The notes beneath the pieces were generated by a model that was not told where the DNA came from, made no database searches, and was given only the letters and a program-made list of their open reading frames with translations. The position numbers and the translations under genes were made by a program. From Thiohalomonadaceae bacterium (GTDB lineage Bacteria; Pseudomonadota; Gammaproteobacteria; Thiohalomonadales; Thiohalomonadaceae), in NCBI GenBank assembly GCA_041562215.1, contig JBFEYJ010000001.1, positions 747-64,746 of the forward strand: a stretch of DNA of 64,000 nucleotides, written 5' to 3'. Shown here one piece after another: positions 5,039 to 60,300 of the stretch (positions within the stretch are counted from its first letter, which is position 1; every line of letters starts with the position of its first letter).

Positions 5039-5539
5039 TCAGTGCTGCATGGCGCCGTGGTCCATCGTGCCGTGGTCCATGCCACCCTTGTTCATCCCTT
5101 CCATACCAGCACGTACTTCATGGGTCACCACCATGGTATTGCCATCCTTGAATTCCAGAGTGATATCGACCTTGTCACCGGCCTTGAGCTGCTGTTTAGG
5201 CTTCATCAACATCAGGTGATAGCCGTTCGGCTCAAAGGTGACACTGCCGCCGGCCGGAATTTCGATCTGCTTCTGGTGCACCATCTTCGCCATGCCATCA
5301 CCCATCACGGTACGATGCAGCATTACGTTGGTAAAGGCCGGGCTATTGGCGCCGATCAAAATGGCGGGTTTGTCACTCTTGTTCATCAGGGTCATGTAAC
5401 CGGCCATTGCGGCGGCTCCAGGTGGGGCCTCACGGATCCAGGTGTTATCGGCCATTACCTGGCCTTCTGCCTGTGCCATAGCGGCCCACAAACCCATGAC
5501 CAACACAACGCCCAAATGCTTAACGATTTTCATCTGCAT
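5039..5539 (-). CDS. periplasmic copper chaperone PCu(A)C (DUF461 family)
   Basis: Signal peptide (...AAMAQAEG). Met/His-containing core typical of PCu(A)C (GYMTLMNKS...MLHRTVM...MVHQ...GYHLMLM). C-terminal Met/His-rich tail MEGMNKGGMDHGTMDHGAMQH. Confidence 0.85.
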   Translation of the reverse strand: MQMKIVKHLGVVLVMGLWAAMAQAEGQVMADNTWIREAPPGAAAMAGYMTLMNKSDKPAILIGANSPAFTNVMLHRTVMGDGMAKMVHQKQIEIPAGGSVTFEPNGYHLMLMKPKQQLKAGDKVDITLEFKDGNTMVVTHEVRAGMEGMNKGGMDHGTMDHGAMQH

Positions 5540-5589
5540 ACTTCCTCATGGTGGCTAAAACATCATGTAAACAACATTAAACTGCAATC

Positions 5590-6294
5590 TCAATTGAGAC
5601 TAAAGCGCATCGTAAAGGCTACCGGCCAAGGCAGGCCCAGTGCCGATGGTGGTTCCGGCAGTGGCAGCGCCTCCTCCACCGCCCGCTTTGCCGCTCCGCT
5701 CAACACCGCTTGTGCGCCTTCCACGCTCAGGCCGGTAACCCTACCACCGGCCTGCAGGGTGAAGGTGACGATCACGTCACCCTCGATGTAACGGCGCCGC
5801 GCCGCCCGTGGGTAGTGCTTATGTTTCTCGATATGTGCCATCAGGCGACGCAGGTATTCCTGCTTCGCTTTCTCAATCAGCGCTGGATCCGCCACGGTGC
5901 CACTGACCGCCTCGCTGACCACGGGCACCTTATCCGCCGCCGCTGTGGTGGGTGCTGACGGTGCCGGCGGCTTCGGTAGAGGTAGTGGTTGAGGCGTAAC
6001 CTCCCTGGCTCGTTCAGCGCGTATGGCCTCCCTGGGAGGCGTCGGCCGAGGCTGCGGTTCTGTCGCCTCGGTCACCTCCGGTTCAGGCTTCTCCGGTGGT
6101 GTCTCCTCCGGAACCGCCTGAGGAGTGGTCAGGGGTGACGTTGCCGATCGAAAGCTCACCCGAGTCGTATGACGCTCCTGACGTTGCTGCTCCTGATTAC
6201 CGGCCAGTGAGCCGGTATTGAAGAACAACAGACCGTGTATCAGCAGAGACAGCGCTACAGCACCTGCCCAGAGCAGCGCGTCTTGTCGCATCAT
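5590..6294 (-). CDS. tonB: energy transducer TonB
   Basis: N-terminal TM anchor, Pro/Glu-rich spacer (PEETPPEKPEPEVTEATEPQPRPTPP...PLPLPKPPAPSAP) and a C-terminal TonB domain (YPRAARRRYIEGDVIVTFTL...). 4-nt overlap with exbD. Confidence 0.8.
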   Translation of the reverse strand: MMRQDALLWAGAVALSLLIHGLLFFNTGSLAGNQEQQRQERHTTRVSFRSATSPLTTPQAVPEETPPEKPEPEVTEATEPQPRPTPPREAIRAERAREVTPQPLPLPKPPAPSAPTTAAADKVPVVSEAVSGTVADPALIEKAKQEYLRRLMAHIEKHKHYPRAARRRYIEGDVIVTFTLQAGGRVTGLSVEGAQAVLSGAAKRAVEEALPLPEPPSALGLPWPVAFTMRFSLN

Positions 6295-6692
6295 CGTTGC
6301 TCGGTCACGATGTCCACCCCGCTCGCCCCTGCCTTGCGAGCGGCATCCAGCACCGTTACCGCCAGACCCAGAGGGGCGCCTCGATCGCCTCTCACCCGCA
6401 CCAGACGATCAGTGCGCCCGCTAAGCTGCTCGGCAAGCACGGCCTCAAGGTTCTCCGGCTCGACGAAGTGATCATCGATAAGGAAATGGCCTTCGGTATT
6501 GAGCACCACCTCCAGTTGATTGTCCTCGGTCATCACCTCACCGCTGTCTGCTACCGGCAAATCGATATTGAGCGCTTGCTCTTGCACAAAGTGTGAGGTC
6601 AGCATGAAGAACACCAACAGCAGGAAGACTATATCGATAAGCGGGGTCAGGTTCGGAACCTTGCTGCTGCGGCGACGCCCCTCAAACTGCAT
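6291..6692 (-). CDS. exbD: biopolymer transport protein ExbD/TolR
   Basis: ExbD signature NLTPLIDIVFLLLVFFM. The likely start is the ATG at 6692 (MQFEGRRR...) rather than the ORF-track start 6761, which lies inside exbB. Confidence 0.85.
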   Translation of the reverse strand: MQFEGRRRSSKVPNLTPLIDIVFLLLVFFMLTSHFVQEQALNIDLPVADSGEVMTEDNQLEVVLNTEGHFLIDDHFVEPENLEAVLAEQLSGRTDRLVRVRGDRGAPLGLAVTVLDAARKAGASGVDIVTEQR

Positions 6693-7341
6693 GCACACTG
6701 CCCTCGCGGTGGTGGACCGTCTCGCCCTCCTCACTATCCTTATTGTGCGGTAATTGCTCAAGTATCAGCGATGCGCAGGATCTCATGTTCTGGGCGCGGC
6801 GATCGGCCATCCCTTCGAGCATGTGCAGTAGCAACAGCACAGGGAGCGCGACCACCAGGCCAACGCCGGTGGTCAACATGGCCTCCCAGATCCCACCGGC
6901 CAGCGCCTGGGCATCGACCCTGCCTCCGGCCTGCTCGATCACCATGAAGGCCTTGATCATGCCAAGAATCGTGCCGAGTAGTCCCAGTAACGGTGCGGTA
7001 TTGCCGAGAAAGCCCAGAGTGCGAAAACCCCGCTCCATACGCTGCAACTCCGCTGAGCCGATCCGTGTTGCCACCCGTCCCAGATCGCGGATCCCTGAAG
7101 CGGCGGCGTCGAGCATGCCACGCATGATCGTTGCCTCCGGACCGTGCAGACGTTCCAGCAATGACTCGACCTCACCTTTGGGCAAAGCACCGGCGATCCT
7201 CTGCTCAAAATCTGTCGGCAACCTGCCCATCAGCAAAAACTGCATCAGCCGTTCAACAACAATCGCCAAGGCGAGAATCGAATAGCCCAGCAGCACCCAG
7301 ACGACGATGCCGCCTTTATCAAAAATATCTGTCAGCATCAT
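6682..7341 (-). CDS. exbB: MotA/TolQ/ExbB proton channel
   Basis: Three TM segments and the motif LGNTAPLLGLLGTILGMI. The likely start is MMLTDIFDKGG at 7341 (ATGA overlap with the upstream gene stop); the ORF-track start 7422 is an extension. Confidence 0.85.
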   Translation of the reverse strand: MMLTDIFDKGGIVVWVLLGYSILALAIVVERLMQFLLMGRLPTDFEQRIAGALPKGEVESLLERLHGPEATIMRGMLDAAASGIRDLGRVATRIGSAELQRMERGFRTLGFLGNTAPLLGLLGTILGMIKAFMVIEQAGGRVDAQALAGGIWEAMLTTGVGLVVALPVLLLLHMLEGMADRRAQNMRSCASLILEQLPHNKDSEEGETVHHREGSVHAV

Positions 7342-8024
7342 GGTTGAACCCACCCCAACGCGGTTACCGAACCCAATAGTATCAACATTCCCCCAGCCCC
7401 GGCCTCCAGCCTGCCGCGCCATTGCGCCAATCCTTCGCGCACCTGCGCCCCAAAATGGGCAACCAGAAAGCTGAAAACAATAGCAGGAACTACCACCGCT
7501 CCCAGACCGAAGGCCATGCCCAGTTCAGCGCCAATCAGCGGATCAGCTGACGCGGCGGCAACTGTCAGTACAGTGCCCAGCGGAACGCAAGGATTGAGCG
7601 CCATTCCCAAACCCAGGCCGAAGAGTCCAAGCGGCATCAGTTTGCGCGGCGCACGAGCGCCGGGAAGCGCAACCTTCTGCTCAGAAGTCATTTTTGCCGT
7701 ACAGATTTCACCCTTCCCGGCCCGGCGAAGGAGTATAACGCCAAGGAGTACGGTCGCCATGCCCAGCAGGATACCCGCAGGCCCTTCTTTAAACCAGTTG
7801 GTGGCGGTATAGCCGGCATACCCGGCCACGGTCCCTAGGGCGATATAACCACCAAGACGGCCTGCTGAAAACGGCAGGATAACGCCAACAGTGCGTCGCC
7901 AGCCTCCATCCTGCGTAAGAAACACCGGTCCAAGATAGGGCATGCAGGTCACGGTACAGGGACCGGCTCCGAACACCAGCCCCATCAGCGCCGCTGCACC
8001 GAAGCTGAGTGATAACACCTCCAT
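7338..8024 (-). CDS. DsbD_2/CcdA-like polytopic membrane protein (thiol-disulfide or metal transfer)
   Basis: 228 aa, about six hydrophobic segments. Has a Cys pair GPCTVTCMPYLGP in the first TM segment and a second motif ALNPCVPLG. The family call is by resemblance only. Confidence 0.5.
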   Translation of the reverse strand: MEVLSLSFGAAALMGLVFGAGPCTVTCMPYLGPVFLTQDGGWRRTVGVILPFSAGRLGGYIALGTVAGYAGYTATNWFKEGPAGILLGMATVLLGVILLRRAGKGEICTAKMTSEQKVALPGARAPRKLMPLGLFGLGLGMALNPCVPLGTVLTVAAASADPLIGAELGMAFGLGAVVVPAIVFSFLVAHFGAQVREGLAQWRGRLEAGAGGMLILLGSVTALGWVQP

Positions 8025-8027
8025 CCC

Positions 8028-9074
8028 CTACTCCTCCTGCGAGGCCGAGCGCTTTCGCCACCAGCCGAGAAACGTTCGCTTTTCCCAATTTCCCTGCGCC
8101 TTTTTGCGCCTTTTGAAGTAGGCTGGATCAGCCTTGAGCAGTGGCGCCAAGGTGTACTGAAGCTTAAGCACGTCCTTGTCGGGACAGAATTCCACGCAAC
8201 GCCCACACAAAGTGCAGTCGGCCAACATCACATCCTTTTTTTGCATCTCGGTGTGGATCTCACGGATGTCCATCGGGCAGGCTTTGGCACAAAGTCCGCA
8301 TTTTTCACAGCGTGGCTTGGCATTTTTCACCAGTCGCAGCAGGCCTATCTTGCGAAACACCGCATGTAGAGCCAGCATCGGGCAGATACGGCAGAAGGGC
8401 TGGCGTATGAACAGCCCCCATACAAGGATCAGGCCGAACAGGAAATTCGCGGTCAGCGACAACAACAGATAGCCCCAACTGGAGGTATCGAGATAGACCT
8501 GGTCGGTGCTGCCGGTGGCAAGAGAGGTAAGGATACGGCTGGGGCAAATCTTGCAGAAGGGATCGCCGGCTTCATGCCCGGTGATCCCTAAGCCGGTCAA
8601 CAGGGGTAACCCAAACACCAGCACGACCAGTATCAGCCACTTCACCGGGCGGATGCGCTCCACCAGTTTCTGCGGCAACGACTCAATACGTTGCAGGCCC
8701 AACTTCTGACCGATAAGAGTAAGCACTTCCTGGAAGAAACCCAGTGGACAGATCCAGCCACAGAAGGCCTTGTTCAACACCACGAAGAGCACCAGGAACG
8801 TCCCGAGCGTAATGAGGGTCGGCATCAGCGCGGCCACCACTGTACCGCCTGCTGAAAGTACGCCGCCGACACGATGGTCCATCTGGTGTTGAAACGGGAT
8901 CAGGGTGCAGTAGTCGGCGCTCTGCATATCGTAAGCACAGCTCAGTGCCGGCAAGGAACCCGATAGCTTATCGGCAGTATAGAAACCGACGATAACCGAA
9001 CCGTAAACCAGAAAGAGGAAGGCACTGAGCTGTACCAGCTTTCGCAACAGGGAAAGATTCATTGCGTTCAACAT
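8028..9074 (-). CDS. membrane-bound 4Fe-4S ferredoxin (NapH/MauN/YccM-like)
   Basis: Multiple TM segments and CxxCP motifs (CKICP, CRICP). Two ferredoxin motifs: CEKCGLCAKACP and CTLCGRCVEFCP. The likely start is MLNAMN at 9074, directly after the upstream stop. Confidence 0.75.
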   Translation of the reverse strand: MLNAMNLSLLRKLVQLSAFLFLVYGSVIVGFYTADKLSGSLPALSCAYDMQSADYCTLIPFQHQMDHRVGGVLSAGGTVVAALMPTLITLGTFLVLFVVLNKAFCGWICPLGFFQEVLTLIGQKLGLQRIESLPQKLVERIRPVKWLILVVLVFGLPLLTGLGITGHEAGDPFCKICPSRILTSLATGSTDQVYLDTSSWGYLLLSLTANFLFGLILVWGLFIRQPFCRICPMLALHAVFRKIGLLRLVKNAKPRCEKCGLCAKACPMDIREIHTEMQKKDVMLADCTLCGRCVEFCPDKDVLKLQYTLAPLLKADPAYFKRRKKAQGNWEKRTFLGWWRKRSASQEE

Positions 9075-9075
9075 A

Positions 9076-9921
9076 TCAGGACTCCCCTGCTTTTTTTTCA
9101 CTGCCGGTTTTACGACTACGCTGCAATACCACCAGTCCGCCAATCATCCCGGCAAACATTGCCAGTAGGCCGCCCGTGAATGACTGCCAGTGAGAGGGAC
9201 TGACATAATACGGAGCACTTACCGTGGTGTGATAACGGCGACTGTCTACTTGCAGCTCGGTGGACACCGTAAAGTCTGCCGGTCGGTTGTTACTACGACC
9301 GGCCTGTACGTCGTGAAAATCATCAGGTAACTCAATGCTGACATGCCCATGCATGTCACTCACCGTTTTGATTTCGGAACCATTTGTCGTGGTGAGCGAT
9401 ACTGGCTGTCGCGCCAGCGGCTCGCCATTATAACGGATAAGAAAGTTCACCGGCTTCATGCTTTGATAACGCTGATGTTCGCGTGTCAGCGGCGCCGGCG
9501 TAATATCCAGCATCGCTTTCGGTGCATCGACCAACTCGGACGGACTCACCTTGGCAGGCCTGCCACGCAAAGCGAGATAACGCATCGCCACCTCTTCACT
9601 CGCTCCATGCCGCTTTTTGGCAAACAGCATGTGGTAGCTATCGAGCCCGGTCTTTTTTACGGATACTTTCCCGCTAGCATCCAGGGACAGGGGACGACGC
9701 ACACGTGTCGGTAACCACAACTCGGCCTCGACATGCGCGTTATCACTAACACCGTCGATAAGTACGAATGTCTTGCCGCCGCCATGACCACCATGGCCGG
9801 CCTGTGAACCTTCAGTTACCTGAGGTGTTTTTCCAGGCGGTTCAGGCTGCCATACCAGAGCGGCCTGTGCGCTACAGGCAAACAACGCCAGCAACGGCAA
9901 GTACACAATATTGTTGTTCAT
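9076..9921 (-). CDS. exported hypothetical protein with His/Gly-rich motif and C-terminal TM anchor
   Basis: The likely start is MNNNIVYLPLLALFACSAQAA (signal peptide) at 9921. It carries the motif SQAGHGGHGGGK, and a C-terminal hydrophobic segment GGLLAMFAGMIGGLVVL followed by basic residues. Any resemblance to DUF4198-type periplasmic metal-uptake proteins is a guess. Confidence 0.55.
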   Translation of the reverse strand: MNNNIVYLPLLALFACSAQAALVWQPEPPGKTPQVTEGSQAGHGGHGGGKTFVLIDGVSDNAHVEAELWLPTRVRRPLSLDASGKVSVKKTGLDSYHMLFAKKRHGASEEVAMRYLALRGRPAKVSPSELVDAPKAMLDITPAPLTREHQRYQSMKPVNFLIRYNGEPLARQPVSLTTTNGSEIKTVSDMHGHVSIELPDDFHDVQAGRSNNRPADFTVSTELQVDSRRYHTTVSAPYYVSPSHWQSFTGGLLAMFAGMIGGLVVLQRSRKTGSEKKAGES

Positions 9922-9986
9922 TCTTTCCCAACCCCATGAGGCAAAAGAGTGCCGTCCCTGGCCGTGAGATTTCATCATGAAATAAC

Positions 9987-12218
9987 TCAAAAATGTACGG
10001 AGAGACCCGCGGTATAGGTGCGTCCCTGGTTGACGACGATTGAGAGGTCCTCCTGGTCATATACCCCATCATCATTGCCATCGCCGTGACCACGCACTGT
10101 GTTGTAATAATTACGATCAAAGAGATTGTCGACGCGGGCAAAGAGCCCCCAATCGCCACTATCCGACGGACGGTCATAGTTGAGGAGCAGGTTGAAGGTG
10201 GTATAGCCGCCGATCTTCTCCTGGTTGATCTCATCCGCATAATAGGAAGACGTTGCATCCATCTCGAGACTCACCAGCCAGTTTGTCTTCGGCATCACAT
10301 GCGCCGTGACATTGAGATGGTGGTGCGGCACCCGCGGTACCTCATTGTCGGTGTTATCGTATAAGGTCGAGATATACTTCGGCGCACACGGCACAGGCGA
10401 GCTATAAGGGCTACAGGTCGAATCATAGGCCGGATTGTAAGTTTGCAGATAGAAGCTGTCGTACTTTGTGTACTCGGAGAGCATGTAGGTATAAGCCACA
10501 TCAAAGGAAAGCTTGCGCTGCGGATCCGTGCTCAGCGCCAACTCCAGACCACGGCTACGCATGTCACCGGTGTTGTCGTAAATGTTCCCACTTGCCGTGG
10601 TGTACTGGCCAGCGGTCGATTGAATGTGATCCTTGCGGTCAATCTGGAACAACGCCAGGTCAATATCCATCGATACACCAAACAGGCTGCCGCGACTCCG
10701 CATCCCCAGTTCGGTATTCAACGCATATTCCGGTTCCAGATCCGGATTGCCCTCAGTGCGCATTGTCGGGCTAGCGCTACCGACAAAGAGCTGTTCCACT
10801 GTCGGTGCGCGGAAACCGGTTGAAGCGTTGGCGTAGAAATCAAAATTAGTATTCAGCGCATAATTGCCGCCAAGGCGCCAGGAGGCGACCTTGAACTGTT
10901 TGCTGTCATCAAGAGTGCTGTCCAGGTTATCGGCATAGTCTAGATCGAGGACATCGTATCGACCGTTCAGGGTCATCACCAGCTTATCAGCAGGACGGAA
11001 CTTCACCTCGCCATAGATGGCACTCACCTTCTCATCCGTAGTGTTGTCATCATAAAGACCACCGACACTACAAGCTCCGTAGGCCTCAGAGCAGTCCAGG
11101 AAGGTGACCTCATTATCGTAACGGTTGTCCCGCAGGTCGGTTGCCAGCATCCAGGCCAGAGATTCTCCGCCGCTACGATATTCCGCCTTCACTCCTCGCT
11201 GCACCTGGTAATAATCGTTATCGTAAGTATAAGAAGAAGGATCAGCGTCAAGCGGTTTGGAGAGGAACCGGGTTTGGTCGGTAAACTGGTAGGTGTTGAC
11301 CATCAGATTGCTGTGATTGTCGATATCACTGGCGTAAGTCAGGAACAGCTTGTCAAGCACCACATCAAAACGGTTCGCATAATCATTATAGGCCGGGTCC
11401 TCGCTTCTCGGGTCCAGCTCGGCGGCAGTGACACCGAGCACACTGCCGTGACTGTTCTTTTCCCGATCGGAATGTTCGAAGCCGAAGGTCAGATCGCTGG
11501 CTTCATCCAGATAGTACTGCAGCTTGCCGTTAACATAATCAGCCTTGGAGGCCGAGTCGTCGTAATAGCCGTCAAGCTCACGACGCGATACCTGCACGTG
11601 GCCGTTGAAACTCTCCCCAGCGGTGCCCACTCGGGCCAGCCCTTTTTTGTAACCGAAACTGCCCGCCTCGGCACTGAGCCTGATTCCGGCATTGGCCGCA
11701 CCGCGCTTGGTGGTGATGATGACGGCGCCGGCCAGGGCATCATCGCCAAATAGATAGGAAGCACCGCCTTTGACCACCTTGATTGATTCGATGTTATCGA
11801 GATCGATATTCACCCGCCCGGTGCGCTCAAACACAGGCACCCCATCGATAACCACAGCAACTCCAGGGCGCTCCCCCATATAGACCTGGTTCTCGACACC
11901 GCGAATATGGATCTTGATCGAATCGCCACTCTGTACCTCGGTGGTAATCCCGGGCACACTCTGCAACAACTGTTGGATATTCTGTGTGTGCGCGACATCA
12001 ACCTCTTCAGCGCTGATCACACCGATATTCGAAGGCTCATCACGCTTATTCTCGAAACGGTCGTCGATGGTGGTCGATTCGACCTGAATAATTCCCAGTT
12101 CTTCAGCCACGGCAGTGCTGATTGGTGCCAAAAGGGATACCCCGGTCATCAAAACAGCGGTATGCAACCCAAAATGCGGAGCAAAAAAACTTTTCACACG
12201 ACTCTCCCAAATAACCAA
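9987..12218 (-). CDS. TonB-dependent outer-membrane receptor
   Basis: Plug domain (...IHIRGVENQ...VVIDGVPV...IESIKVVKGGASYLFGDDALAGAVIITTKRG), a long beta-barrel and the terminal ...TYTAGLSVHF. The probable true start is GTG 12197 (GGGAGAG upstream), giving the signal peptide VKSFFAPHFGLHTAVLMTGVSLLAPISTAVA. Confidence 0.9.
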   Translation of the reverse strand: MVIWESRVKSFFAPHFGLHTAVLMTGVSLLAPISTAVAEELGIIQVESTTIDDRFENKRDEPSNIGVISAEEVDVAHTQNIQQLLQSVPGITTEVQSGDSIKIHIRGVENQVYMGERPGVAVVIDGVPVFERTGRVNIDLDNIESIKVVKGGASYLFGDDALAGAVIITTKRGAANAGIRLSAEAGSFGYKKGLARVGTAGESFNGHVQVSRRELDGYYDDSASKADYVNGKLQYYLDEASDLTFGFEHSDREKNSHGSVLGVTAAELDPRSEDPAYNDYANRFDVVLDKLFLTYASDIDNHSNLMVNTYQFTDQTRFLSKPLDADPSSYTYDNDYYQVQRGVKAEYRSGGESLAWMLATDLRDNRYDNEVTFLDCSEAYGACSVGGLYDDNTTDEKVSAIYGEVKFRPADKLVMTLNGRYDVLDLDYADNLDSTLDDSKQFKVASWRLGGNYALNTNFDFYANASTGFRAPTVEQLFVGSASPTMRTEGNPDLEPEYALNTELGMRSRGSLFGVSMDIDLALFQIDRKDHIQSTAGQYTTASGNIYDNTGDMRSRGLELALSTDPQRKLSFDVAYTYMLSEYTKYDSFYLQTYNPAYDSTCSPYSSPVPCAPKYISTLYDNTDNEVPRVPHHHLNVTAHVMPKTNWLVSLEMDATSSYYADEINQEKIGGYTTFNLLLNYDRPSDSGDWGLFARVDNLFDRNYYNTVRGHGDGNDDGVYDQEDLSIVVNQGRTYTAGLSVHF

Positions 12219-12461
12219 GCTAACAACAAAACTATTTATATGTTTATAAAGCGTTTATTTGCTTGCATTTCATGTGCCATCTATAAGGGATTGTTTTTAT
12301 TGAAAACTACGGAAAGTTAAAGAAGTAAACAGGGGTTATGACACTACTGATGCGGCATATCACACACCTGAGCTGGTGATGCGAAAAAATGACTCCAACG
12401 CAAAGAGCGCAGAAGTCATGCGAATCCTTTCCCCGGTGATGACTGTTGGTCAGGAGGTAGC

Positions 12462-12926
12462 ATGAAAGGAATGAATGGATTAAATGAAATTAACAGGCCC
12501 ACGCATATTCCCTCTGCGCTGAATAAATACGTCAGGCAGAACATCAAGTCTATGATGCAGGGTGAATTTAATCGGTATGTTGCCGGATTTCAGGATTTGT
12601 TGATGGTCAGTTCACCCCTGGCAGGGCGCTTCCAAAGACACATCGCACGCAAAGAAAATACAAGCTCTTCTCGCCCATTGACTGGAGACTACGCATTCCC
12701 TGCTGTGCATGGCGGCTGCGAAAGCAATCATCATCCACAGATAGTTATGAATAGCGTGGAGCAGATATTTTGTTACTTCACCGTACTCTGCTCCCGCCCC
12801 TCGATACCGGTGATGCCGAGTGTGCCGGGATTACCGCCAACTGGTTTTACCGTGAGCAGCCAGGTACCGCGCGAGGCGTTCCAGTACATTGGACCGTGTC
12901 CATCGAGCTGGAGCTGTGCGCTATAA
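12462..12926 (+). CDS. questionable small ORF (hypothetical)
   Basis: A strong AGGAGG SD lies 5 nt before ATG 12462, in the 550-bp AT-rich gap. However, the last ~150 nt run antisense through the 3' end of the subtilase gene, and no family is recognisable. Confidence 0.25.
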   Translation: MKGMNGLNEINRPTHIPSALNKYVRQNIKSMMQGEFNRYVAGFQDLLMVSSPLAGRFQRHIARKENTSSSRPLTGDYAFPAVHGGCESNHHPQIVMNSVEQIFCYFTVLCSRPSIPVMPSVPGLPPTGFTVSSQVPREAFQYIGPCPSSWSCAL

Positions 12927-15569: not shown

Positions 15570-15636
15570 CCTTTACCTCTCTCGCGAGGAACAGACTCTG
15601 CCGTGTCAACCGGTAGCACCCGCACCCGGCGCTGTA

Positions 15637-17517: not shown

Positions 17518-17530
17518 AGTTATGGGGCCA

Positions 17531-18787: not shown

Positions 18788-18819
18788 GGATCGTCTCCTG
18801 AGCTCGAGTCGGGTGGCCG

Positions 18820-25334: not shown

Positions 25335-25642
25335 TTCGGCTCTCCCACTCACTGATTCAGTAGCACTGAACAGACGACGACCCATCGCCTGCCTTTACAC
25401 CGTGTCGCCGGAATACCGTTAACCTCAACAATACCGGTCGTCACGCATAACAACAGCCATCGAAAAACAGCCTAGTGATTAGCTAAAGTTTTACCGGTCG
25501 GTGCAGCCCCTATTTCCATGGGGGGACGACCCTATGAGCAAGGTAGTTGTGCACCTGACTGACAAGGACGAAAAGCAGCCTGCGGCAAATGCGGGATTCA
25601 TTGAAACTTCAGGAGATGACATTAGGAAGATAACGGAGAGTA

Positions 25643-31768: not shown

Positions 31769-31770
31769 TG

Positions 31771-34523: not shown

Positions 34524-34530
34524 GGCGGTT

Positions 34531-36330: not shown

Positions 36331-36353
36331 GTTTTTTGCCGTGCCTGTATCGG

Positions 36354-38483: not shown

Positions 38484-38589
38484 ACTGTTCTCCTTGTTAT
38501 TACCGGCACCCGCAGATCGGACCAGCCTTCGGGCCTCACACTCCCACATCTTTTGTCAGTCAGACTGGCAGGATTACAGTGAGCACAAC

Positions 38590-39129
38590 TCAGTGCTGCT
38601 TACCCCGCTCTTCATCCAGCATGATTCGCTGTTTTTCTCCGCTCTTATTAAGGCTCACGCTAACGGCCGTCATCGATTCAATCTCCCAACCTTCCACCAC
38701 ATCGCCCGGCTGCGCCTTGATAACTTCAGTGCCGCCTGGCTTGCCGAGAAGGGCATAACTTGATTGCGGTGACGTCACGACACCAATCAACACAAACGCC
38801 AACGGCTGATGGGGCGTCAACGCCTCTACCGGCGAGGCAGTCGCTAGCACACGCCTCTCGCTCCAAAACAGCGGTCGTGCCAGAAGCTCCTGATAATGAT
38901 CGAGAGAGAGGGTGCGCAGAGGGCTCCCAGGTAACTGTACGGATGGTGTTTGTATATCCGGCGCCTCATGCATGGAGACCACTTGAGGCGCGTTTTTCCA
39001 TAACCACACCATCATGATCAACAACACCAGATTTAGCAGCAGCAAGAATGAACGCATCAGTCTGCCCGTACTCGTCACCGGCACCCTGCCCGGCCAATAC
39101 ATAGGCATGACCTCCATATGGCTCCCCAC
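38590..39129 (-). CDS. small GspC/XpsN-like T2SS inner-membrane component (no PDZ)
   Basis: One N-terminal TM segment (FLLLLNLVLLIMMVWLW) and a short periplasmic beta-rich domain. It sits directly upstream of gspD, as gspC/xpsN do. The name is inferred from position and topology only. Confidence 0.5.
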   Translation of the reverse strand: MGSHMEVMPMYWPGRVPVTSTGRLMRSFLLLLNLVLLIMMVWLWKNAPQVVSMHEAPDIQTPSVQLPGSPLRTLSLDHYQELLARPLFWSERRVLATASPVEALTPHQPLAFVLIGVVTSPQSSYALLGKPGGTEVIKAQPGDVVEGWEIESMTAVSVSLNKSGEKQRIMLDEERGKQH

Positions 39130-39317
39130 ATTTTTATCTGTTAGCTATAGCTATAGTCAGAGGCAGGAAAGGTGACAAGCAGGTAAACACCCTAGTTGAT
39201 AACTGGCCGCTAGGGGCGTGTAGATTTGCCTTTTGTCGCAGGAGGGCAATCCAGCCGTGACAAAGGTGGCACCTTAAGCAAATGCGGCAGGGATACCGCT
39301 CATATATTCGGAACCTT

Positions 39318-40208
39318 TCACCGCCCCTCTCGCCAGCGAAGAAATTCATATCGCAAGGGGGCATTGGCACGAGTGGGCATAAAGCGCACCACCGCATCCA
39401 CCTGCTCGCGGACACCGTTATCGAGCCGTGCTTCAACAGCAATGCTGAAGACAGCTCCTGTGCTCCTCATTCCGCGCGCCGTTAAAACAACATACGAGTC
39501 GGCCTCAGCCCCGCCTTCACCGAGATGGTCATCATTGACCAGGCTATCACCGTCGTCTCTCAGCGCTTGTCGAAGTCGAGGCGTCGCCACCTGCATATTA
39601 ATGGCGGCATCTCCGGCATAGATCGTAAGGTTCTCGATAAGAGCGTGGTATAGCGAAGCATCGACACCGATAACCAGAGCCAATTCCTCCAGGCTCTGAA
39701 ACGGGCCATTGCGTGGACCATAATCCAGCCCGGCAACGCGGTATTCCTCCTCCTCGGCGCCGTTGAGACGACGCAGGCTGTCCCGGTCGCGCCAGTCGAG
39801 AATAGCGTCAACCAGTGCCTCGCGCCGTTCCTGTATCACACCGCTTGCCGCGAACAGCTTACCTAGCACAGTTGCCGATGCGACGTTGATGTCTACCTTG
39901 CCGCTCTCGTCAGTGATCGCAACAGAAAGATTCGCCTGATCAAAGCGCAGGGTATTAATGCTGCTATCACGGCTCATCTCGCGCGCCGGAATCGGCTTTG
40001 CCAGATCGGCGATCGCCAGTTGCAGCCCTGCCCAGGCGGCTGCCCGGGCATTGGCCGATTCAACCAGGTTACCGACGACCAGAGTCTCGGTACGCACCGT
40101 AGCACTCTGGCTCACGGCCATCAGCGCCAGCAGCGCCACCAACCACAGCACCACCACCAACGCGATGCCACCCTGATGCACTGAAGTCGATTCACGCCCC
40201 GCCCTCAT
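39318..40208 (-). CDS. gspK: type II secretion minor pseudopilin GspK
   Basis: ATG 40208 overlaps the gspJ stop (ATGA). N-terminus ...HQGGIALVVVLWLVALLALMAV, about 300 aa, in the typical GspK position after gspJ. Confidence 0.8.
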   Translation of the reverse strand: MRAGRESTSVHQGGIALVVVLWLVALLALMAVSQSATVRTETLVVGNLVESANARAAAWAGLQLAIADLAKPIPAREMSRDSSINTLRFDQANLSVAITDESGKVDINVASATVLGKLFAASGVIQERREALVDAILDWRDRDSLRRLNGAEEEEYRVAGLDYGPRNGPFQSLEELALVIGVDASLYHALIENLTIYAGDAAINMQVATPRLRQALRDDGDSLVNDDHLGEGGAEADSYVVLTARGMRSTGAVFSIAVEARLDNGVREQVDAVVRFMPTRANAPLRYEFLRWREGR

Positions 40209-40852
40209 CGCGTGGCCCCTGTTACCGGCAACACCACCACCAGCGCCGGCCAGGGTGCGCTTTGCGCCTGCAGGTGCAACGTCATGCGCACCCTTGCCGG
40301 GAGACGCTCCGGCTTGTCCCATATAGCCTGCCAGTGGGGTCCATCCGGCAAAGGTGTATCCGCAAAATAGGCGAACTCACCATTGTCCAACCCACTCACC
40401 AGCAAGGCGCTTTCCGTCATCCCCTGCCACCCGGGATCCTCACCGGGAAGCCAGGGACGATAATCAAGCCACAACGTCTTTCCCCGCTCATCAGCAACAA
40501 AACGCAAACGGTAGCGATACAACGCAACAAGACGACCGTCCTGAACCGGCGCCGGAGCAACGAATTCCAACAACTGGGGAGCGCCGGAAAACAGCAACTT
40601 TCGACTGGCCTCAAGAGGTCTTATCGCCACCACCTGATTAAGCTGCCGACGCACCACACTAGCGGCGATACGCAGTTGATCGAGTTCGCTCCCCAGCAGG
40701 TCAGTACGCTCCCAACTGCGTGAAGCAAAACGCAAAGAGGAAAAGGCGATGGTCAGCGCCATCCCCACCAGCGCCATGGCGATCATCATCTCCATCAGGG
40801 TGAAGCCACGACCGTGACGCCTGGCAGCAGAAATAGACACACAATCGATCAT
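40205..40852 (-). CDS. gspJ: type II secretion minor pseudopilin GspJ
   Basis: Prepilin cleavage/methylation motif GRGFTLMEMMIAMALVG. 4-nt overlaps on both sides. Confidence 0.8.
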   Translation of the reverse strand: MIDCVSISAARRHGRGFTLMEMMIAMALVGMALTIAFSSLRFASRSWERTDLLGSELDQLRIAASVVRRQLNQVVAIRPLEASRKLLFSGAPQLLEFVAPAPVQDGRLVALYRYRLRFVADERGKTLWLDYRPWLPGEDPGWQGMTESALLVSGLDNGEFAYFADTPLPDGPHWQAIWDKPERLPARVRMTLHLQAQSAPWPALVVVLPVTGATR

Positions 40853-41256
40853 TTCGCCTGCCCGAGAGTAAGCGTGGACAACTGCACGGAGCGCCGGCGA
40901 TTACCCTCACCCCAGTCGACCTGGACATCGATGCGATAGAGACGGGTGCGACCGGCATCCAAGCCCCCCTCCTCGTAGGGAGAGACCCGACTCTGCCAGC
41001 TAAATCCCTCAGAGATACCCTCACTGATCCCGCTTTCCAGTTGCGTCGCGTTACTGCTCCCCTGAAAGGCGGCCAGGTGCGACTCGGCCAAAGTGAGCGC
41101 TCGGGCATACTCAGCGGCAACCGCAGTGTTACGCAGTCCGCTGGCGAATAGTGAGAGAATAGTCGCCACCGCCAGCGCCAGAATGGCAAAAGCGACCAGA
41201 ACCTCCAGCAGCGAAAAGCCTTGCTGAACCTTGGCAGTGTGGCGGAAGTCATTCAT
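40849..41256 (-). CDS. gspI: type II secretion minor pseudopilin GspI
   Basis: Prepilin motif QQGFSLLEVLVAFAILA. 135 aa. Confidence 0.8.
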   Translation of the reverse strand: MNDFRHTAKVQQGFSLLEVLVAFAILALAVATILSLFASGLRNTAVAAEYARALTLAESHLAAFQGSSNATQLESGISEGISEGFSWQSRVSPYEEGGLDAGRTRLYRIDVQVDWGEGNRRRSVQLSTLTLGQAK

Positions 41257-41770
41257 GCAGAGATACCCGCCCGCTCAGCCAGTCCACATCCAGCCGGAGC
41301 TGCCGCACCTCTGCGACCAGTGTCACGCTACCGCCAGTGGCGCTGCCGTCAGCGAAGAAGGTGATCGATCCGGCGCCCCCGCCGCGCAGCTCGCTCTCGC
41401 CGGTCACCAGTTCCAACTGAAGGTCTTCCGGCAGAGCTACTGAAGGCCTGCCGTCGACACGAAACGATTGTTGCTCAAGATCCAGGGTAAAGGCGACAGG
41501 CTTTCGCCGACTCACCGCCGTACTGCGTGCATAACGCAAGGCGGCCAGCATCTCTCGCGCCACTGTGTTCAACCCGGTTGTGGAGAGGCCGCGATCAAAC
41601 AGCGGCGGCACCAGTGCTAAGAGTGCACTCATCAGCACCAACACTACCAGCAGCTCCATCAAGGTAACGCCGCGACAGCGCCATGGTTCACTCCCAGGCC
41701 AGGATGTCCGCATCTTCACCACTGCCGCCTTGTGCATTGTCCGCCCCCAGTGAAAAGAGGTCATAGACAC
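41249..41770 (-). CDS. gspH: type II secretion minor pseudopilin GspH
   Basis: Prepilin motif CRGVTLMELLVVLVLMSALL. The true start is probably one of the internal ATGs (41737 or 41713), because the listed start overlaps the gspG 3' end. Confidence 0.75.
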   Translation of the reverse strand: MSMTSFHWGRTMHKAAVVKMRTSWPGSEPWRCRGVTLMELLVVLVLMSALLALVPPLFDRGLSTTGLNTVAREMLAALRYARSTAVSRRKPVAFTLDLEQQSFRVDGRPSVALPEDLQLELVTGESELRGGGAGSITFFADGSATGGSVTLVAEVRQLRLDVDWLSGRVSLHE

Positions 41771-42128
41771 CCTCTTCTCCCGGAAAGCGGTAGTGGAAAG
41801 TGTATCCCCAAGGATCCTTAGGCACCGTACGTTTTTTCAGATAGGGACCGTTCCAGCGCGTATCGGTACCCTGCGGGGCTTCCACCAGCGCATTCAAGCC
41901 CTGCTCGACTGAGGGGTATCGCCCCACTTCCAGGCGGTACAGATCGAGCGCCCCCCCCAACTCCTGGAGCTGCAGGTAAGCGGTTTTGGTCTTGGAGGTC
42001 CCGAGATATTTCATCACCTGCGGCCCCACCAGGCCCGCCAGCAGACCGAGGATCACCAGCACCACCAGCAGCTCAATGAGAGTAAAACCATTCAACTTTT
42101 CAGTTTGTTGCCACTTTCTATTCATCAT
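41688..42128 (-). CDS. gspG: type II secretion major pseudopilin GspG
   Basis: GGGAG SD plus ATGATG at 42128, giving MMNRKWQQTEKLNGFTLIELLVVLVILGLLAGLVGP and then the conserved ...DPWGYTFHY... The ORF-track start (GTG 42239) is an extension into the repeat region. Confidence 0.9.
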   Translation of the reverse strand: MMNRKWQQTEKLNGFTLIELLVVLVILGLLAGLVGPQVMKYLGTSKTKTAYLQLQELGGALDLYRLEVGRYPSVEQGLNALVEAPQGTDTRWNGPYLKKRTVPKDPWGYTFHYRFPGEEGVYDLFSLGADNAQGGSGEDADILAWE

Positions 42129-42542
42129 CACTCCCAGATATAAATCCGTTGCGAGTGCGTCATACGCCGCCTTCGCCTGTTGTGCTGAATGTGTGTTCCT
42201 TTCTGCAGTGAAAAAACTGCGTTTATAAATGTCTGTCACTGCGAGAAACTGAGCCTGTAAGTGTCGGCCACTGCAAGAAACTGAACCTGTAAATATCTGT
42301 CATTGCGAGGAACGATAGTGACGATGCAATCTGTCTCCAACGGCCGCTTTCTATTCATCATCACTCCCAGGTATAAAATCCGTTGCAATTAGGTCATACG
42401 TCGCCATCGCAGGTTAGACTGAATGTCTGTTCCTTTCTGCAGTGCTAGAAACTGCGTCTATTAAGTATCTGTCACTGCGAGAAACTGAGCCTGTAAATAT
42501 CTGTCATTGCGAGGAGCGGTAGTGACGAAGCAATCTGTCCCC
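42114..42542. repeat. imperfect tandem duplication (~200-230 bp unit) of the gspG start codon/SD/leader region with nested ~32-nt sub-repeats
   Basis: Copy A (42114-42338) and copy B (42347-42542) both begin ctttctattcatcatcactcccag (reverse complement = SD + ATGATGAATAGAAAG). Both continue through ...ttcctttctgcagtg...ctgtcactgcgagaaactgagcctgtaa...atatctgtcattgcgagga.cg.tagtgacga.gcaatctgtc. Copy A has an extra unit, gtgtcggccactgcaagaaactgaacctgtaa. Confidence 0.85.
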
Positions 42543-42598
42543 GACAGTGACCGACATGAAATCGTTTCGCTGCCTCTTCTGGTTTCTCGCGGCTACAC

Positions 42599-43810
42599 CT
42601 ACAGCGTCAAGTCATTAATGCTCAGGATCGCCACCAGGATCGACATGATGATCCCCCCGACGATGATCCCCAGTCCAATGATCAGCATCGGCTCAAGCAA
42701 GGCCAGCATTCTCTGTACAGAGGCCCTCACCTCACGGTCATAGATATCGGCGAGACGCAGTAACATCGCGTCAAGGCTGCCGGTCTCCTCGCCTACCCGC
42801 ACCAAATGAACAGCAAGCGATGGAAAGCTTCCGCTCTCCGTCAGTCCGGCGGCCAGGGTCGTTCCGCCCTTGACTCCCTCGACAACGCTTGCAATGCGAC
42901 TCTGCAACACCTGATTGGTCAGTGTTTCACGCACGATCTGCAGTGATGCGAGCAAGGGCACGCCGTTGTGGAGCAACGTTGAGAGAGTACGCGAGAAGAT
43001 CGCCATCTGTATCTTGATCATCAATTCTCCCAGCAGCGGCCATCCCATCAGACGGATCTCCCAGCGATAGCGACTCTCTGCCTGGCCCCACTGTGCCTGC
43101 ATGAACTTTGCTCCAAGGAGCATCAGCGCAACTCCCGCCCACCAATAATCATGCAGCATCTCGGCGGCGCCACTAACGATACGCGTTGCCAGCGGCAACT
43201 CACGCCCCATATCCTCAAACAGCACCGTAAACTGAGGCACCACAACCACCATCAGCACAAGCAGTGACAGCACCGTGATTACCACCAGCAGCGCCGGATA
43301 GATAAGCGCCGTTCGCACACTCTCCTTGACCGAGTCCAGCTCCTCAGTGGATTCGGCCAGTCGCAGCAGCACGGCGCCGAGCATGCCGGATGCCTCCCCG
43401 GCACGCACCATATTGATATGAAATCGGCTGAATACGCCCTGCTCCGCTTCCATCACCTCAGAGAGGGAGCGTCCGCTACGCACCCCATCGAGCATCTGTG
43501 CCGCCACCCTGGCCTGACCCAGACCCGTAGCGATATCGCTAAACATGGAAAGAGCGCGGTCCAGCGGGATCCCCGCCTCAAGCAAGGTGCCCATGTCACG
43601 GGCAAATGCCGCCACATTGAAACCACCCCGCCGAGGCAAAGGGAGAGATAAAAAGCGCTCACGCCAGCTGCCGCCAACCGGTTCCGCGCTGATCGGCGCA
43701 TATCCCTGCTCCTTGAGCCGCTGGAGGGCATCGTTTTCGGTAAGCGCCTCGATTTCACCTTCCAGCAGGCCGCCTGCCGCGTCCACGACCTTATAGCGAA
43801 ACCGGCTCAT
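42599..43810 (-). CDS. gspF: type II secretion inner-membrane platform protein GspF
   Basis: 403 aa with duplicated GspF domains and three TM segments. Ends ...GGIIMSILVAILSINDLTL. Sits 1 nt after the gspE stop. Confidence 0.9.
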   Translation of the reverse strand: MSRFRYKVVDAAGGLLEGEIEALTENDALQRLKEQGYAPISAEPVGGSWRERFLSLPLPRRGGFNVAAFARDMGTLLEAGIPLDRALSMFSDIATGLGQARVAAQMLDGVRSGRSLSEVMEAEQGVFSRFHINMVRAGEASGMLGAVLLRLAESTEELDSVKESVRTALIYPALLVVITVLSLLVLMVVVVPQFTVLFEDMGRELPLATRIVSGAAEMLHDYWWAGVALMLLGAKFMQAQWGQAESRYRWEIRLMGWPLLGELMIKIQMAIFSRTLSTLLHNGVPLLASLQIVRETLTNQVLQSRIASVVEGVKGGTTLAAGLTESGSFPSLAVHLVRVGEETGSLDAMLLRLADIYDREVRASVQRMLALLEPMLIIGLGIIVGGIIMSILVAILSINDLTL

Positions 43811-43811
43811 A

Positions 43812-45491
43812 TCAGATCGCCCGCGTCACGCGCAACACCTCTTCCAGGCTGGTCACACCGGCCAAGGCCTTATCCAGGCCATCCTCATACATTGTGCGCA
43901 TGCCGCTTGCCCTGGCTGCCTGCTGGAACTCATGCGCTCCAGCCTGCCGGAGCACCAGCGAGCGGATCTCATCAGTCATCGGCAACAGTTCCAGTATCGC
44001 CGTGCGCCCCTTATAGCCGCTGCCCTTGCACTGCTCGCATCCGGCCGCACGATACAGCTTCACCGGCTCACCATTTTCCGGCTCAGGAAGCTGAAGCTCA
44101 CTTGCAAGGTCCGCCAACACCTCGGTACTCTCCCGACAATGAGGACAGAGCCGGCGAACCAGGCGCTGCGCCACAATGCCGATCACCGTCGAGGTCACCA
44201 GATAGCCCTCCACCCCCATGTCCAGCAGACGATTGACACTGCTCAACGCATCGTTTGTATGCAAGGTAGAGAGCACCAGGTGACCGGTCATCGCCGACTG
44301 CACTGCAATCCGCGCCGTCTCCAGATCGCGCATCTCGCCGATCATGATGACATCCGGGTCCTGGCGCACCAGCGCGCGCAGCGCACGTGCGAAGTCGAGT
44401 CCGATCTGCGGCTTGACCTGCAGTTGGTTGACCCCTTCCAACTCGTATTCGACCGGATCCTCCACGGTAAGGATCTTGCGTGTCGGCTGGTTGAGGTGGT
44501 GCAGTGCAGCATAAAGAGTGGTGGTCTTGCCACTACCGGTGGGACCGGTAACCAGAAGGATCCCGTTAGGCTGGTGCACCATCCCCATAAAGCGCTCCAA
44601 GAGCGCATCGGTAAAACCGAGCTGATGGAAATCCGGCACAGCGCCATCCTTGCGCAGCAATCTGATCACGACACTTTCCCCATGCATCGTCGGCACGGTG
44701 GAGAGGCGCAGATCGATCTCGCGACCCTGGCTGCGCAGTTGGATCCGTCCATCCTGCGGTAGGCGTCTCTCGGCAATATCCAGTTTGGCCATGATCTTGA
44801 AACGGGAGATGATCGCCGCACTCATCCGCGATGGCGGTGCCTCCATCTCCTGTAACATGCCATCGATTCGATAACGCACCTTGAGGCGGTTATCGAACGG
44901 CTCGATATGGATATCCGAGGCGCCGGCATCAATCGCCCGCTCGATCAACAGATTAACCAGGCGGATCACCGGCGCCTCACTGGCCAGGTCCTTCAGGTGT
45001 TCGATATCATCCGCTTCGCTCCGGCTCTCGGGCTGGCTGACATCGGCAACGATCTGATCCATCACAGAGCGACCACTACCGTAAAGGCGCTCAATAGCCG
45101 CCCCCAGCTCACTCGGCTGCGCCAGGCGCGGTTTGACCCGCATACCGGTTGTCATCTCCATCGCGCTGATCACATATCGGTCCAAAGGATTGGCCATTGC
45201 CAACTCCAGCTCGCCTTCACGCACGCCCAGCGGCACAGCCTTGTGGTATTTCAGAAAATTGACGGAAAAGTGATCCGGCTGCACCGGCTCAAAGGGATAC
45301 TCCTCCTGGCGCACCACAGCCATGTCCAACTGCCTGGAGACCATATCGACCACATCACTCTCAGCAACCAGGCCAAGGCGCACCAGGATCGAACCAATAG
45401 GTTCTGAACGCCCCTTCTTGAGTTCGAGTGCACGTTCAAGATCAGCCACATCGACCTTGCCGGCCGCAACGAGCGTATCGCCGATTCTCAT
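43812..45491 (-). CDS. gspE: type II secretion ATPase GspE
   Basis: Walker A GPTGSGKTTT, Asp box, Walker B (DPDVIMIGEMRD), His box (TGHLVLSTLHTN) and the tetracysteine motif CPHC...CEQC. Confidence 0.95.
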   Translation of the reverse strand: MRIGDTLVAAGKVDVADLERALELKKGRSEPIGSILVRLGLVAESDVVDMVSRQLDMAVVRQEEYPFEPVQPDHFSVNFLKYHKAVPLGVREGELELAMANPLDRYVISAMEMTTGMRVKPRLAQPSELGAAIERLYGSGRSVMDQIVADVSQPESRSEADDIEHLKDLASEAPVIRLVNLLIERAIDAGASDIHIEPFDNRLKVRYRIDGMLQEMEAPPSRMSAAIISRFKIMAKLDIAERRLPQDGRIQLRSQGREIDLRLSTVPTMHGESVVIRLLRKDGAVPDFHQLGFTDALLERFMGMVHQPNGILLVTGPTGSGKTTTLYAALHHLNQPTRKILTVEDPVEYELEGVNQLQVKPQIGLDFARALRALVRQDPDVIMIGEMRDLETARIAVQSAMTGHLVLSTLHTNDALSSVNRLLDMGVEGYLVTSTVIGIVAQRLVRRLCPHCRESTEVLADLASELQLPEPENGEPVKLYRAAGCEQCKGSGYKGRTAILELLPMTDEIRSLVLRQAGAHEFQQAARASGMRTMYEDGLDKALAGVTSLEEVLRVTRAI

Positions 45492-60293: not shown

Positions 60294-60300
60294 CAGTTTT

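Follow-up and report, generated by a model that had tools for sequence, protein, structure and literature searches.

The 64,000-nt stretch of DNA analyzed here, referred to throughout as the window, belongs to a Thiohalomonadaceae bacterium (contig JBFEYJ010000001.1 of assembly GCA_041562215.1, positions 747 to 64,746), and the region with which we are concerned spans positions 5039-45491 of it. At the center of this region, an operon on the minus strand (12773-25385) encodes a giant secreted protein, three proteins with Pfam Cu-oxidase domains that we designate MCO-A, MCO-B, and MCO-C (for multicopper oxidase), a lipoprotein, and a subtilase. On the subtilase side lies a TonB-based metal-uptake cassette (5039-12218), and on the side of the giant gene lie regulatory genes followed by those of a type II secretion system (T2SS), which enclose the gene for the copper chaperone SCO1 and a gene for a MofC-like cytochrome. 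Gene content was established from the listing of open reading frames (ORFs) together with Pfam and NCBIfam scans of the window, and all of the gene blocks that a first-pass annotation of the bare sequence had described in this region are present where it had placed them. That annotation read them as a self-contained unit for acquiring copper, metallating an extracellular oxidase, and secreting it; we favor a layered composite.

Core operon and the division of its copper ligands

Read from its high-coordinate end, the operon begins with the gene for the giant protein (20112..25385, 1757 residues), followed by those for MCO-A (18820..20049, 409 residues), MCO-B (17531..18823, 430 residues), MCO-C (15637..17517, 626 residues), the lipoprotein, and the subtilase, all on the minus strand. 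MCO-A has two cupredoxin domains, the first of which carries the motifs HxxHxH (HTVHFHG) and HCHx5Hx4M (HCHVEATEHMQMGM), which together supply a type 1 (T1) copper site and four histidines of a trinuclear cluster. In MCO-B, domain 1 is degenerate, and domain 2 carries HxxHxH (HPFHTHG) and HSH (WHSH), which supply four trinuclear-cluster histidines with a serine in the place of the T1 cysteine. MCO-C consists of two cupredoxin domains without copper ligands and three C-terminal Big_9/cadherin-like repeats. In homologs taken from about 80 related loci, all eight ligand positions of MCO-A are invariant (66 homologs), six positions of MCO-B are invariant in 66-67 of 67 homologs, and no Cu-ligand motif or column of MCO-C is conserved (46 homologs). 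None of the three, judged over these 46-67 homologs, holds a full T1 site plus eight trinuclear ligands in a single chain. The first-pass annotation had spoken of a split oxidase, and the split turns out to be sharper than it had claimed, with the ligands divided between MCO-A and MCO-B and kept that way across relatives.

MCO-B belongs to a large family whose members are 60-70% identical between distant taxa. An AlphaFold (AF2) model of it built from 46 sequences (pLDDT 76, with a 90-residue insert of low confidence) best matches the two-domain laccases 2zwn (target-normalized TM-score 0.72) and 3g5w, and it also matches copper nitrite reductases (NirK). Relatives of both kinds, two-domain laccases and copper nitrite reductases, are trimers with inter-subunit copper sites. 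Because the ligand split is invariant and the closest structures are trimeric with copper held between subunits, MCO-A, MCO-B, and MCO-C most likely form a heterotrimer with a single active site, as far as ligand bookkeeping in the sequences and the modeled fold can indicate. If this is the case, then the complex would be a six-domain, ceruloplasmin-like A-B-C ring in which a single trinuclear cluster is built where domain 1 of MCO-A (H132, H134, H174, and H176) meets domain 2 of MCO-B (H275, H277, H399, and H401), with one T1 copper in MCO-A and with MCO-C serving as a copper-free spacer that bears adhesin-like repeats.

The 3 proteins might instead not assemble at all, in which case MCO-A would be a small blue copper electron carrier or partial oxidase, and MCO-B and MCO-C would be structural or adhesive proteins decorating the giant protein. 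The ligand-free MCO-C with its adhesin-like repeats and the low-confidence insert in the MCO-B model are compatible with such an arrangement. It would, however, leave MCO-A and MCO-B each keeping four of the eight trinuclear histidines, without exception in 66-67 homologs from several phyla, and we know of no function for half a trinuclear cluster on its own. Moreover, the structures most similar to the MCO-B model are obligate trimers that bind copper between subunits, and the adjacency and order of the three genes never vary: the giant gene is followed by MCO-A/B/C in 59 of the 59 loci with at least 4.5 kb of sequence beyond it. We consider non-assembly quite improbable and retain the heterotrimer in what follows.

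The giant protein is conserved over its whole length, being 50-84% identical from end to end in the first five contexts recovered, which come from distant taxa, with a mean column identity of 47% in an alignment of 27 sequences. When its first 500 residues were searched against a set holding a single genome for each species, relatives turned up in at least 366 species. Carriers include Thiohalomonadaceae (the closest, at 85%), Thiobacillus, Sulfuricella, Gallionellaceae, Sideroxydans, Methylocaldum, and Amphritea, as well as members of Nitrospirota, Desulfobacterota, Acidobacteriota, and Planctomycetota, and they are mostly chemolithotrophs from redox gradients. The C-terminal part has beta-helix-like repeats and a choice-of-anchor Q domain. 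A profile of the 27 sequences recovered no sequence relative in the PDB, and a single-sequence AlphaFold model of residues 55-600 was unusable (pLDDT 35). The core operon is ancient, widely spread, and still uncharacterized.

In related loci, the lipoprotein and then the subtilase usually come next after the MCO genes. The lipoprotein (15063..15569, minus strand, 168 residues) has the lipobox LFLAGC, and a homolog follows MCO-C in 56 ORFs of related loci. The subtilase (12773..14836, minus strand; Pfam Peptidase_S8, E 8e-43) has a signal peptide along with Calx-beta and MopE-type metal-binding (Cu-binding_MopE) matches. All of the candidate cargo proteins of the operon carry Sec-type rather than twin-arginine signal peptides.

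Between the stop codon of the giant gene and the start of MCO-A, a perfect G+C-rich hairpin (20072-20096; CCCTGGCCGC-CTGAT-GCGGCCAGGG) may make transcript levels differ from one part of the operon to another. In a Geobacter-like metagenome contig (L005, 17335-21269), the giant/MCO operon is followed by a gene for an FKBP isomerase and then by one for a protein of more than 1339 residues with Cu-oxidase_2 and fn3 matches; these genes are an OmpB/MofA-MofB-like set adjoining the module.

Secretion genes, regulators, and the SCO1/MofC-like pair

The T2SS genes of the window lie in two blocks on the minus strand. The smaller one, gspL-gspM (29062..30820; Pfam T2SSM_b and PilN), abuts the gene of a PAS/HisKA_3 kinase (27012-29069, minus strand). 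There is an 8-nt overlap between the ORFs called for gspM and the kinase, so gspL-gspM is probably co-transcribed with the kinase gene. The larger block (33582..45491) comprises gspE-F-G-H-I-J-K, a GspC-like gene, and gspD-A-B, and is convergent with SCO1/mofC. NCBIfam equivalog models exceed their cut-offs for GspE (659 versus 630 bits), GspD (504 versus 351), and GspG (162 versus 89), as does GspM_XpsM for GspM (133 versus 60). GspF is clear in Pfam (T2SSF, E 8e-56) and below its NCBIfam cut-off, and GspL has a PilN-like Pfam match only, with no match in NCBIfam. The minor pseudopilin set is present, with Pfam matches GspH, N_methyl, T2SSJ, and T2SSK_1st for GspH, I, J, and K, while the Xps-type NCBIfam matches of F, H, I, and the minor pseudopilins stay below cut-off. 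The 179-residue ORF between gspK and gspD (38590-39129) lacks a match of its own, but an ortholog has a faint T2SSC match, and it is probably GspC. A prepilin peptidase, GspO, was not found among the window ORFs scanned with Pfam; the gene for this enzyme often lies at another locus and serves type IV pili as well.

For 60 loci of other species, all with 8 kb or more of sequence ahead of the giant gene, we counted the genes in the 10 kb upstream of it. Two or more T2SS genes occur there in 10 of the 60, and in two further loci with shorter flanks (L028 and L079), gspD-gspK lies directly before the giant gene. By a rough estimate of our own, chance would place a 15-kb T2SS cluster no more than 10 kb from a given gene in well under 1% of genomes, or in about 0.4 of 60 loci, and the observed adjacency exceeds this. 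At least seven gene orders are involved. The order of the window recurs in L009-L011; elsewhere, we find a full operon from gspE to gspM that diverges from the giant gene (L036), gspLM with an inverted gspE-K block (L070), gspF-to-L followed by a kinase (L062), gspK-L-M-x-D-SCO1-mofC (L078), and, in Amphritea, a single-strand array of gspI-J-K, kinase, NtrC-type regulator, hybrid kinase, receiver, SCO1, mofC, and the giant gene. Because the adjacency has been re-created repeatedly in different gene orders, it argues for functional coupling rather than inheritance alone, at least to the extent that synteny can speak to function.

The window's GspL is itself informative, having only 27 detectable homologs. 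Every one of these with genomic context (L100-L103) shows the order T2SS, SCO1/mofC, gspLM, kinase, regulators, giant, MCO. The layout of the window is kept down to 42% GspL identity (L010 and L011), and the gspLM-kinase order is the same in L009-L011, L100, and L102.

If this T2SS were a general secretion system that stands beside the oxidase by shared descent or chance, then the oxidase could be periplasmic or reach the surface by another route. Such a reading gains from the 50 of 60 related loci without T2SS genes within 10 kb upstream, from the ordinary T2SS equivalog scores of GspE, GspD, and GspG, and from the fact that the 64-kb window shows us one T2SS and leaves the rest of the genome outside view. 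Shared descent alone is nevertheless insufficient for at least seven gene orders across lineages. SCO1 and mofC, which are oxidase-module genes elsewhere, sit inside the T2SS cluster here, gspLM abuts the module's own kinase gene, and all homologs of this GspL type with context lie beside the oxidase module. We therefore regard a general T2SS as unlikely, and prefer a T2SS that is coupled to the oxidase module.

The pair inserted between the two T2SS blocks is encoded on the plus strand. SCO1 (30977-31768), divergent from gspL, matches Pfam SCO1-SenC (PF02630, 84 bits versus a cut-off of 23) and has the CxxxC motif as CTTIC and a His/Met-rich N-terminal stretch. Beside it is a 577-residue protein (31699-33432) with a weak Pfam Cytochrom_C match and one CxxCH, which appears to be a MofC-like fusion of a cytochrome c with a binding protein; its ortholog in L004 has a weak Peripla_BP_6 match. 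The "cytochrome c fusion" of the first-pass annotation is accordingly kept as a cytochrome c gene next to SCO1 and relabeled MofC-like, with a single heme motif. SCO1 and a MofC-like homolog of about 570 residues directly follow the operon in L004 and L007, and the pair lies within 10 kb upstream in 17 of the 60 loci. Because of these two placements, the gene order indicates that the pair belongs to the oxidase module, even though in the window it is found inside the T2SS cluster.

Between gspLM and the giant gene, the regulators consist of the kinase, a NarL/LuxR response regulator (26400-27059, plus strand), and a CheY-like receiver (25643-26056, minus strand), all identified with Pfam. Of the 60 loci, 26 have a LuxR-type (NarL-type) regulator upstream of the giant gene, 19 of them at 45% identity or more. 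The intergenic regions upstream of the giant gene (25386-25642) and between gspL and SCO1 (30821-30976) both contain conserved boxes of the form ATRGGGK; a GCACCGACCGGTAA block is likewise conserved in the giant promoter. The boxes number three in the giant promoter, two in the gspL/SCO1 region, and one between cheY and luxR, are conserved in relatives, and could possibly be the binding site of the NarL-type regulator. Over the whole window, this motif, which was chosen post hoc, occurs at chance frequency (30 matches versus 30.6 expected). CATAGGGK, tried as a shared regulatory motif, was not significant.

Several other features of the T2SS block deserve mention. GspE (43812-45491) has an N-terminal MshEN-type domain of the kind that binds cyclic di-GMP (NCBIfam NF053729, above cut-off, and Pfam MshEN), and the genes after it on the same strand (45835-51154) encode a response regulator with an HD-GYP phosphodiesterase domain and a 1403-residue hybrid PAS kinase; from these domains, secretion may be gated by cyclic di-GMP. 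In the gspF-gspG gap (42226-42545), a unit of about 32 nt (TGTCACTGCGAGAAACTGAGCCTGTAAATATC) is present about five times, in the form of two 84-nt blocks that are 88% identical. The repeat is found nowhere else in the window; it may represent clustered sites for a regulator or else a small repeat element ahead of gspG. A Cys-rich ORF of 102 residues (39134-39442) overlaps gspK and is probably not a gene. We rejected it as spurious together with those at 12462-12926 and 4961-5791; all three lack matches and overlap better-supported genes or the promoter region of the TonB receptor gene.

The TonB metal-uptake cassette

All genes of the cassette are on the minus strand, beginning with a TonB-dependent receptor (9987..12218; Pfam Plug and beta-barrel). 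Next come a 304-residue putative member of the DUF4198 family of periplasmic metal-binding proteins (9076..9990), a NapH/NosR-like 4Fe-4S membrane protein together with a DsbD_2 thiol-disulfide membrane protein (7338..9143; Pfam DsbD_2, Fer4_5, and Fer4_10), and the energizing proteins ExbB, ExbD, and TonB (5590..7422; Pfam MotA_ExbB, ExbD, and TonB_C), whose ORFs overlap or abut. The last gene encodes the copper chaperone PCu(A)C (5039..5539; PF04314, E 1e-38, 132 bits versus a cut-off of 29), in which the motif H-X10-M-X21-H-X-M can be read (LHRTVMGDGMAKM...YHLM) ahead of a Met/His-rich tail. The NapH/NosR-like protein matches the NCBIfam NapH/MauN and NosR C-terminal region models, both under their cut-offs. 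The 304-residue protein has no Pfam match at E 0.01 or better, and its assignment comes from homologs at 34-56% identity that carry PF10670 or the DUF4198 name. Its subfamily is small, at 95 proteins, and a metagenome scan with a narrow alignment of it yielded nine loci. DUF4198 proteins are described as binding Zn or Ni in the periplasm (PMC12663993, PMC12537917).

The first-pass annotation had taken the receptor to be of the OprC/NosA copper type, an identity that we reject. Its nearest solved relatives are YncD and PqqU, OprC is absent among the matches to solved structures at E 1e-5 or better, and in NCBIfam every match is below cut-off, with no copper-receptor model among the 25 matches shown. 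The indications of copper specificity in the cassette are the conserved PCu(A)C and, in one distant copy (L094), SCO1, which suggest that copper is the imported metal.

The cassette is a separate, separately regulated unit, because it has its own conserved sigma-54-type promoter, occurs on its own elsewhere, and is missing from other copies of the operon. The promoter (TGGCAC-N5-ATGCA; 12264..12279, minus strand) lies 45 nt upstream of the receptor gene, is the sole match in the window, and is kept in L001, L091, and L104. In L001, L091/L106, and L104, the cassette comes directly after the subtilase, with DUF4198 homologs at 64-72% identity; in L104, a sigma-54 activator and tig-clpP-clpX-lon come after PCu(A)C and show where the island ends on its left. 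The cassette is absent beside the operon in L003 (where MCO-B is 73% identical), L004, L005, and L007. Two distant copies, L094 and L095, keep the order receptor, DUF4198, NapH-like, DsbD_2, TonB, to which L094 adds SCO1 and PCu(A)C. Both are surrounded by unrelated genes (MMPL, DyP peroxidase, sirohaem synthase, and cytochrome cd1), and no oxidase operon is present in the visible context of either. The cassette is thus a lineage-specific add-on, found beside the oxidase only in the clade of the window.

These observations raise the possibility that the cassette is an independent metal-acquisition unit, supplying copper for respiratory oxidases or N2O reductase, or supplying another metal, that merely landed beside the oxidase operon in this clade. 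The solitary copies, the four operons without it, its own conserved promoter, the 554-bp gap that separates it from the subtilase gene, and a receptor nearest to YncD/PqqU all fit such a history. On the other hand, cassette and operon are adjacent in every clade member with context (DUF4198 identities 64-100%), PCu(A)C, and SCO1 in L094, are fixed members that point to copper, and each complex of the neighboring enzyme would have to receive four coppers in the periplasm. We give full independence close to an even chance, though somewhat short of it. Of the copper import that the first-pass annotation had counted as part of the unit, what stands is the adjacency in the clade with PCu(A)C among the members; what falls is any general attachment to the oxidase. 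A copper-import layer that is lineage-specific, independently regulated, and not OprC-like is plausible: the cassette would have been added downstream in this clade only, under its own sigma-54 promoter, and probably improves copper supply.

Rfam gave no matches in the window, and a scan of it for sigma-70 promoters and terminators stayed below the expectation from shuffled sequence. Outside the region, at 54000-64000, G+C falls from about 55% to 41-44%, and the plus strand encodes a Ser/Thr kinase-AAA_16-TPR protein (55372-59361), a 306-residue protein without matches, a 727-residue YcaO protein (60301-62484), and an Irp3-like thiazolinyl imine reductase (62522-63556). This flank looks like a horizontally acquired YcaO/azoline-type island.

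A proposed layered composite and its known counterparts

Taken together, we judge it reasonably probable that the region is a layered composite of core operon, maturation and control, export, and metal uptake, and not one indivisible unit. Conserved gene order gives good support to the layers of metallation, regulation, and secretion. PCu(A)C and SCO1 are periplasmic Cu(I) chaperones, and T2SSs export folded proteins. In the model that we propose, the SCO1/MofC-like pair and the NarL-type two-component system, which usually accompany the operon, would serve its maturation and control. The subunits would cross into the periplasm unfolded via Sec and be loaded with copper in that compartment, aided by SCO1. 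The location follows from the Sec-type signal peptides of the cargo candidates, and metallation by periplasmic chaperones ahead of T2SS export fits with this. The T2SS, physically fused to the module in the window and in several other lineages, would then export the folded, copper-loaded proteins to the surface or medium. Processing of this cargo may fall to the subtilase, and its anchoring to the lipoprotein. As for the substrate, mineral Fe(II) or Mn(II) is a reasonable guess, because a cluster of matching composition in an iron oxidizer (discussed below) is more abundant on magnetite and because the carriers are mostly chemolithotrophs.

In its most ambitious form, this model would make the giant protein and A-B-C, as a "split ceruloplasmin", a previously unrecognized extracellular oxidase machine of hundreds of mostly chemolithotrophic species. 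Its substrate would be insoluble or located outside the cell, with mineral Fe(II) or Mn(II) as examples, and its locus would hold dedicated metal import, periplasmic loading by SCO1/PCu(A)C, its own sensing, and export by a co-evolved T2SS. We advance this only tentatively and think it somewhat doubtful as a whole. Weighing against the layered model itself are the 50 of 60 loci without a nearby T2SS, which make the T2SS a non-obligate neighbor, and the single T2SS seen in a window that represents a fraction of the genome. The grounds for the heterotrimer are ligand bookkeeping and a modeled fold. The promoter type and the occurrences of the cassette are independent of the oxidase operon, its receptor is without similarity to known copper receptors, and characterized DUF4198 proteins bind Zn or Ni, not Cu. 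The shared ATRGGGK boxes, recognized after the fact and no more frequent than chance, are a statistically weak lead. Most of the related loci come from metagenome-assembled genomes, and the side past the subtilase was mostly outside the sequence visible in the locus scan.

The synteny that the first-pass annotation had proposed to look for among receptor cluster, oxidase operon, SCO1/cytochrome pair, and T2SS is therefore upheld in part: operon, regulators, SCO1/MofC, and T2SS behave as a co-inherited unit whose layout persists in every relative with enough context, down to 42% GspL identity, and the TonB cassette is limited to the clade. Likewise, "self-contained unit" overstates a case in which synteny ties secretion and metallation to the oxidase and most related loci show no T2SS in the 10 kb upstream. 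We count the T2SS, SCO1/mofC, and the NarL system with the operon and regard the TonB cassette as an optional, lineage-specific extra. What emerges is a widespread, conserved module that seems to have been noted only in passing in iron oxidizers and that has repeatedly been joined to a T2SS, copper chaperones, and regulators, together with a testable model for how its oxidase complex is made and exported.

Parts of this picture are already known, namely what is apparently the core, as noted in Sideroxydans lithotrophicus ES-1, and the existence of T2SS-dependent multicopper proteins. We could not find an earlier description of the conserved three-gene division of the copper site or of the physical interleaving of an oxidase module with a T2SS, and our literature searches turned up no paper that links an ES-1-type tandem MCO cluster with a T2SS. 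To our knowledge, the secretion genes of T2SS-dependent extracellular multicopper oxidases have not been described as fused to the oxidase locus. For a heteromeric oxidase with one active site, we neither know of nor found a characterized precedent.

The closest counterpart of the core is Slit_1812-1818 of ES-1, where tandem MCO genes with SCO1 and a MofC-like gene have been noted (He et al. 2017, PMC5566968; Keffer et al. 2025, PMC12016527) and which is up-regulated or more abundant on magnetite (PMC12016527). As in the window, there are tandem cupredoxin/MCO genes, two with MCO motifs and a larger one without, small hypothetical genes, an SCO1/SenC gene, and a MofC-like cytochrome, with proteins predicted to be extracellular; the match is by published composition only. 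Parts of the larger, motif-free protein resemble adhesins and polysaccharide lyases. Neither a T2SS nor a TonB cassette nor regulators are reported for the ES-1 cluster. A Sideroxydans metagenome-assembled genome (L076) carries the giant gene.

For export, the nearest parallel is OmpB, the outer-surface multicopper protein of Geobacter sulfurreducens, which, as far as the citing papers relate, needs the Pul/OxpG T2SS (Mehta et al. 2006, cited in PMC5566968, PMC3543383). In those accounts, the pul genes are near cell-division and DNA-uptake genes (PMC3543383) and apparently do not adjoin ompB, whereas the T2SS of the window is interleaved with the oxidase. As described there, OmpB resembles the window's system in its T2SS dependence and in the MofC-like and SCO1 genes beside the oxidase gene, but it is a single long polypeptide that holds all motifs and an fn3 domain, whereas the oxidase of the window is spread over three genes.

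Further parallels come from metal-oxidizing bacteria and from nitrous oxide respiration. MofA-MofB-MofC of Leptothrix discophora comprise a metal-oxidizing multicopper oxidase with the accessory cytochrome MofC, and the Mn-oxidizing factor of Pseudomonas putida GB-1 is reportedly secreted by the xcm T2SS. These systems share with the window an extracellular multicopper oxidase, an accessory cytochrome (MofC), and Gsp-related secretion, but their MCOs are single large polypeptides, and they are not known to have a giant partner, split ligands, or a fusion of T2SS and oxidase loci. The cassette recalls NosA/OprC with the nos genes (NosR, NosL), where a TonB receptor, a NosR/NapH-like Fe-S membrane protein, and a periplasmic copper chaperone likewise accompany a copper enzyme matured in the periplasm; in the window, however, the receptor is dissimilar, PCu(A)C stands in place of NosL, and a DUF4198 protein and DsbD_2 are additional.

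At the level of structure, the 2zwn laccase, the Nitrosomonas blue copper oxidase 3g5w, and SLAC resemble the proposed complex in having two cupredoxin domains per chain and trinuclear-cluster histidines contributed by two domains at an interface. Ceruloplasmin offers the other half of the analogy, a six-domain ring with a single trinuclear cluster, as we propose for A-B-C. The known two-domain enzymes, however, are homotrimers with three clusters, whereas the enzyme of the window would be built from three paralogous chains with one cluster, one T1 copper, and one ligand-free subunit.

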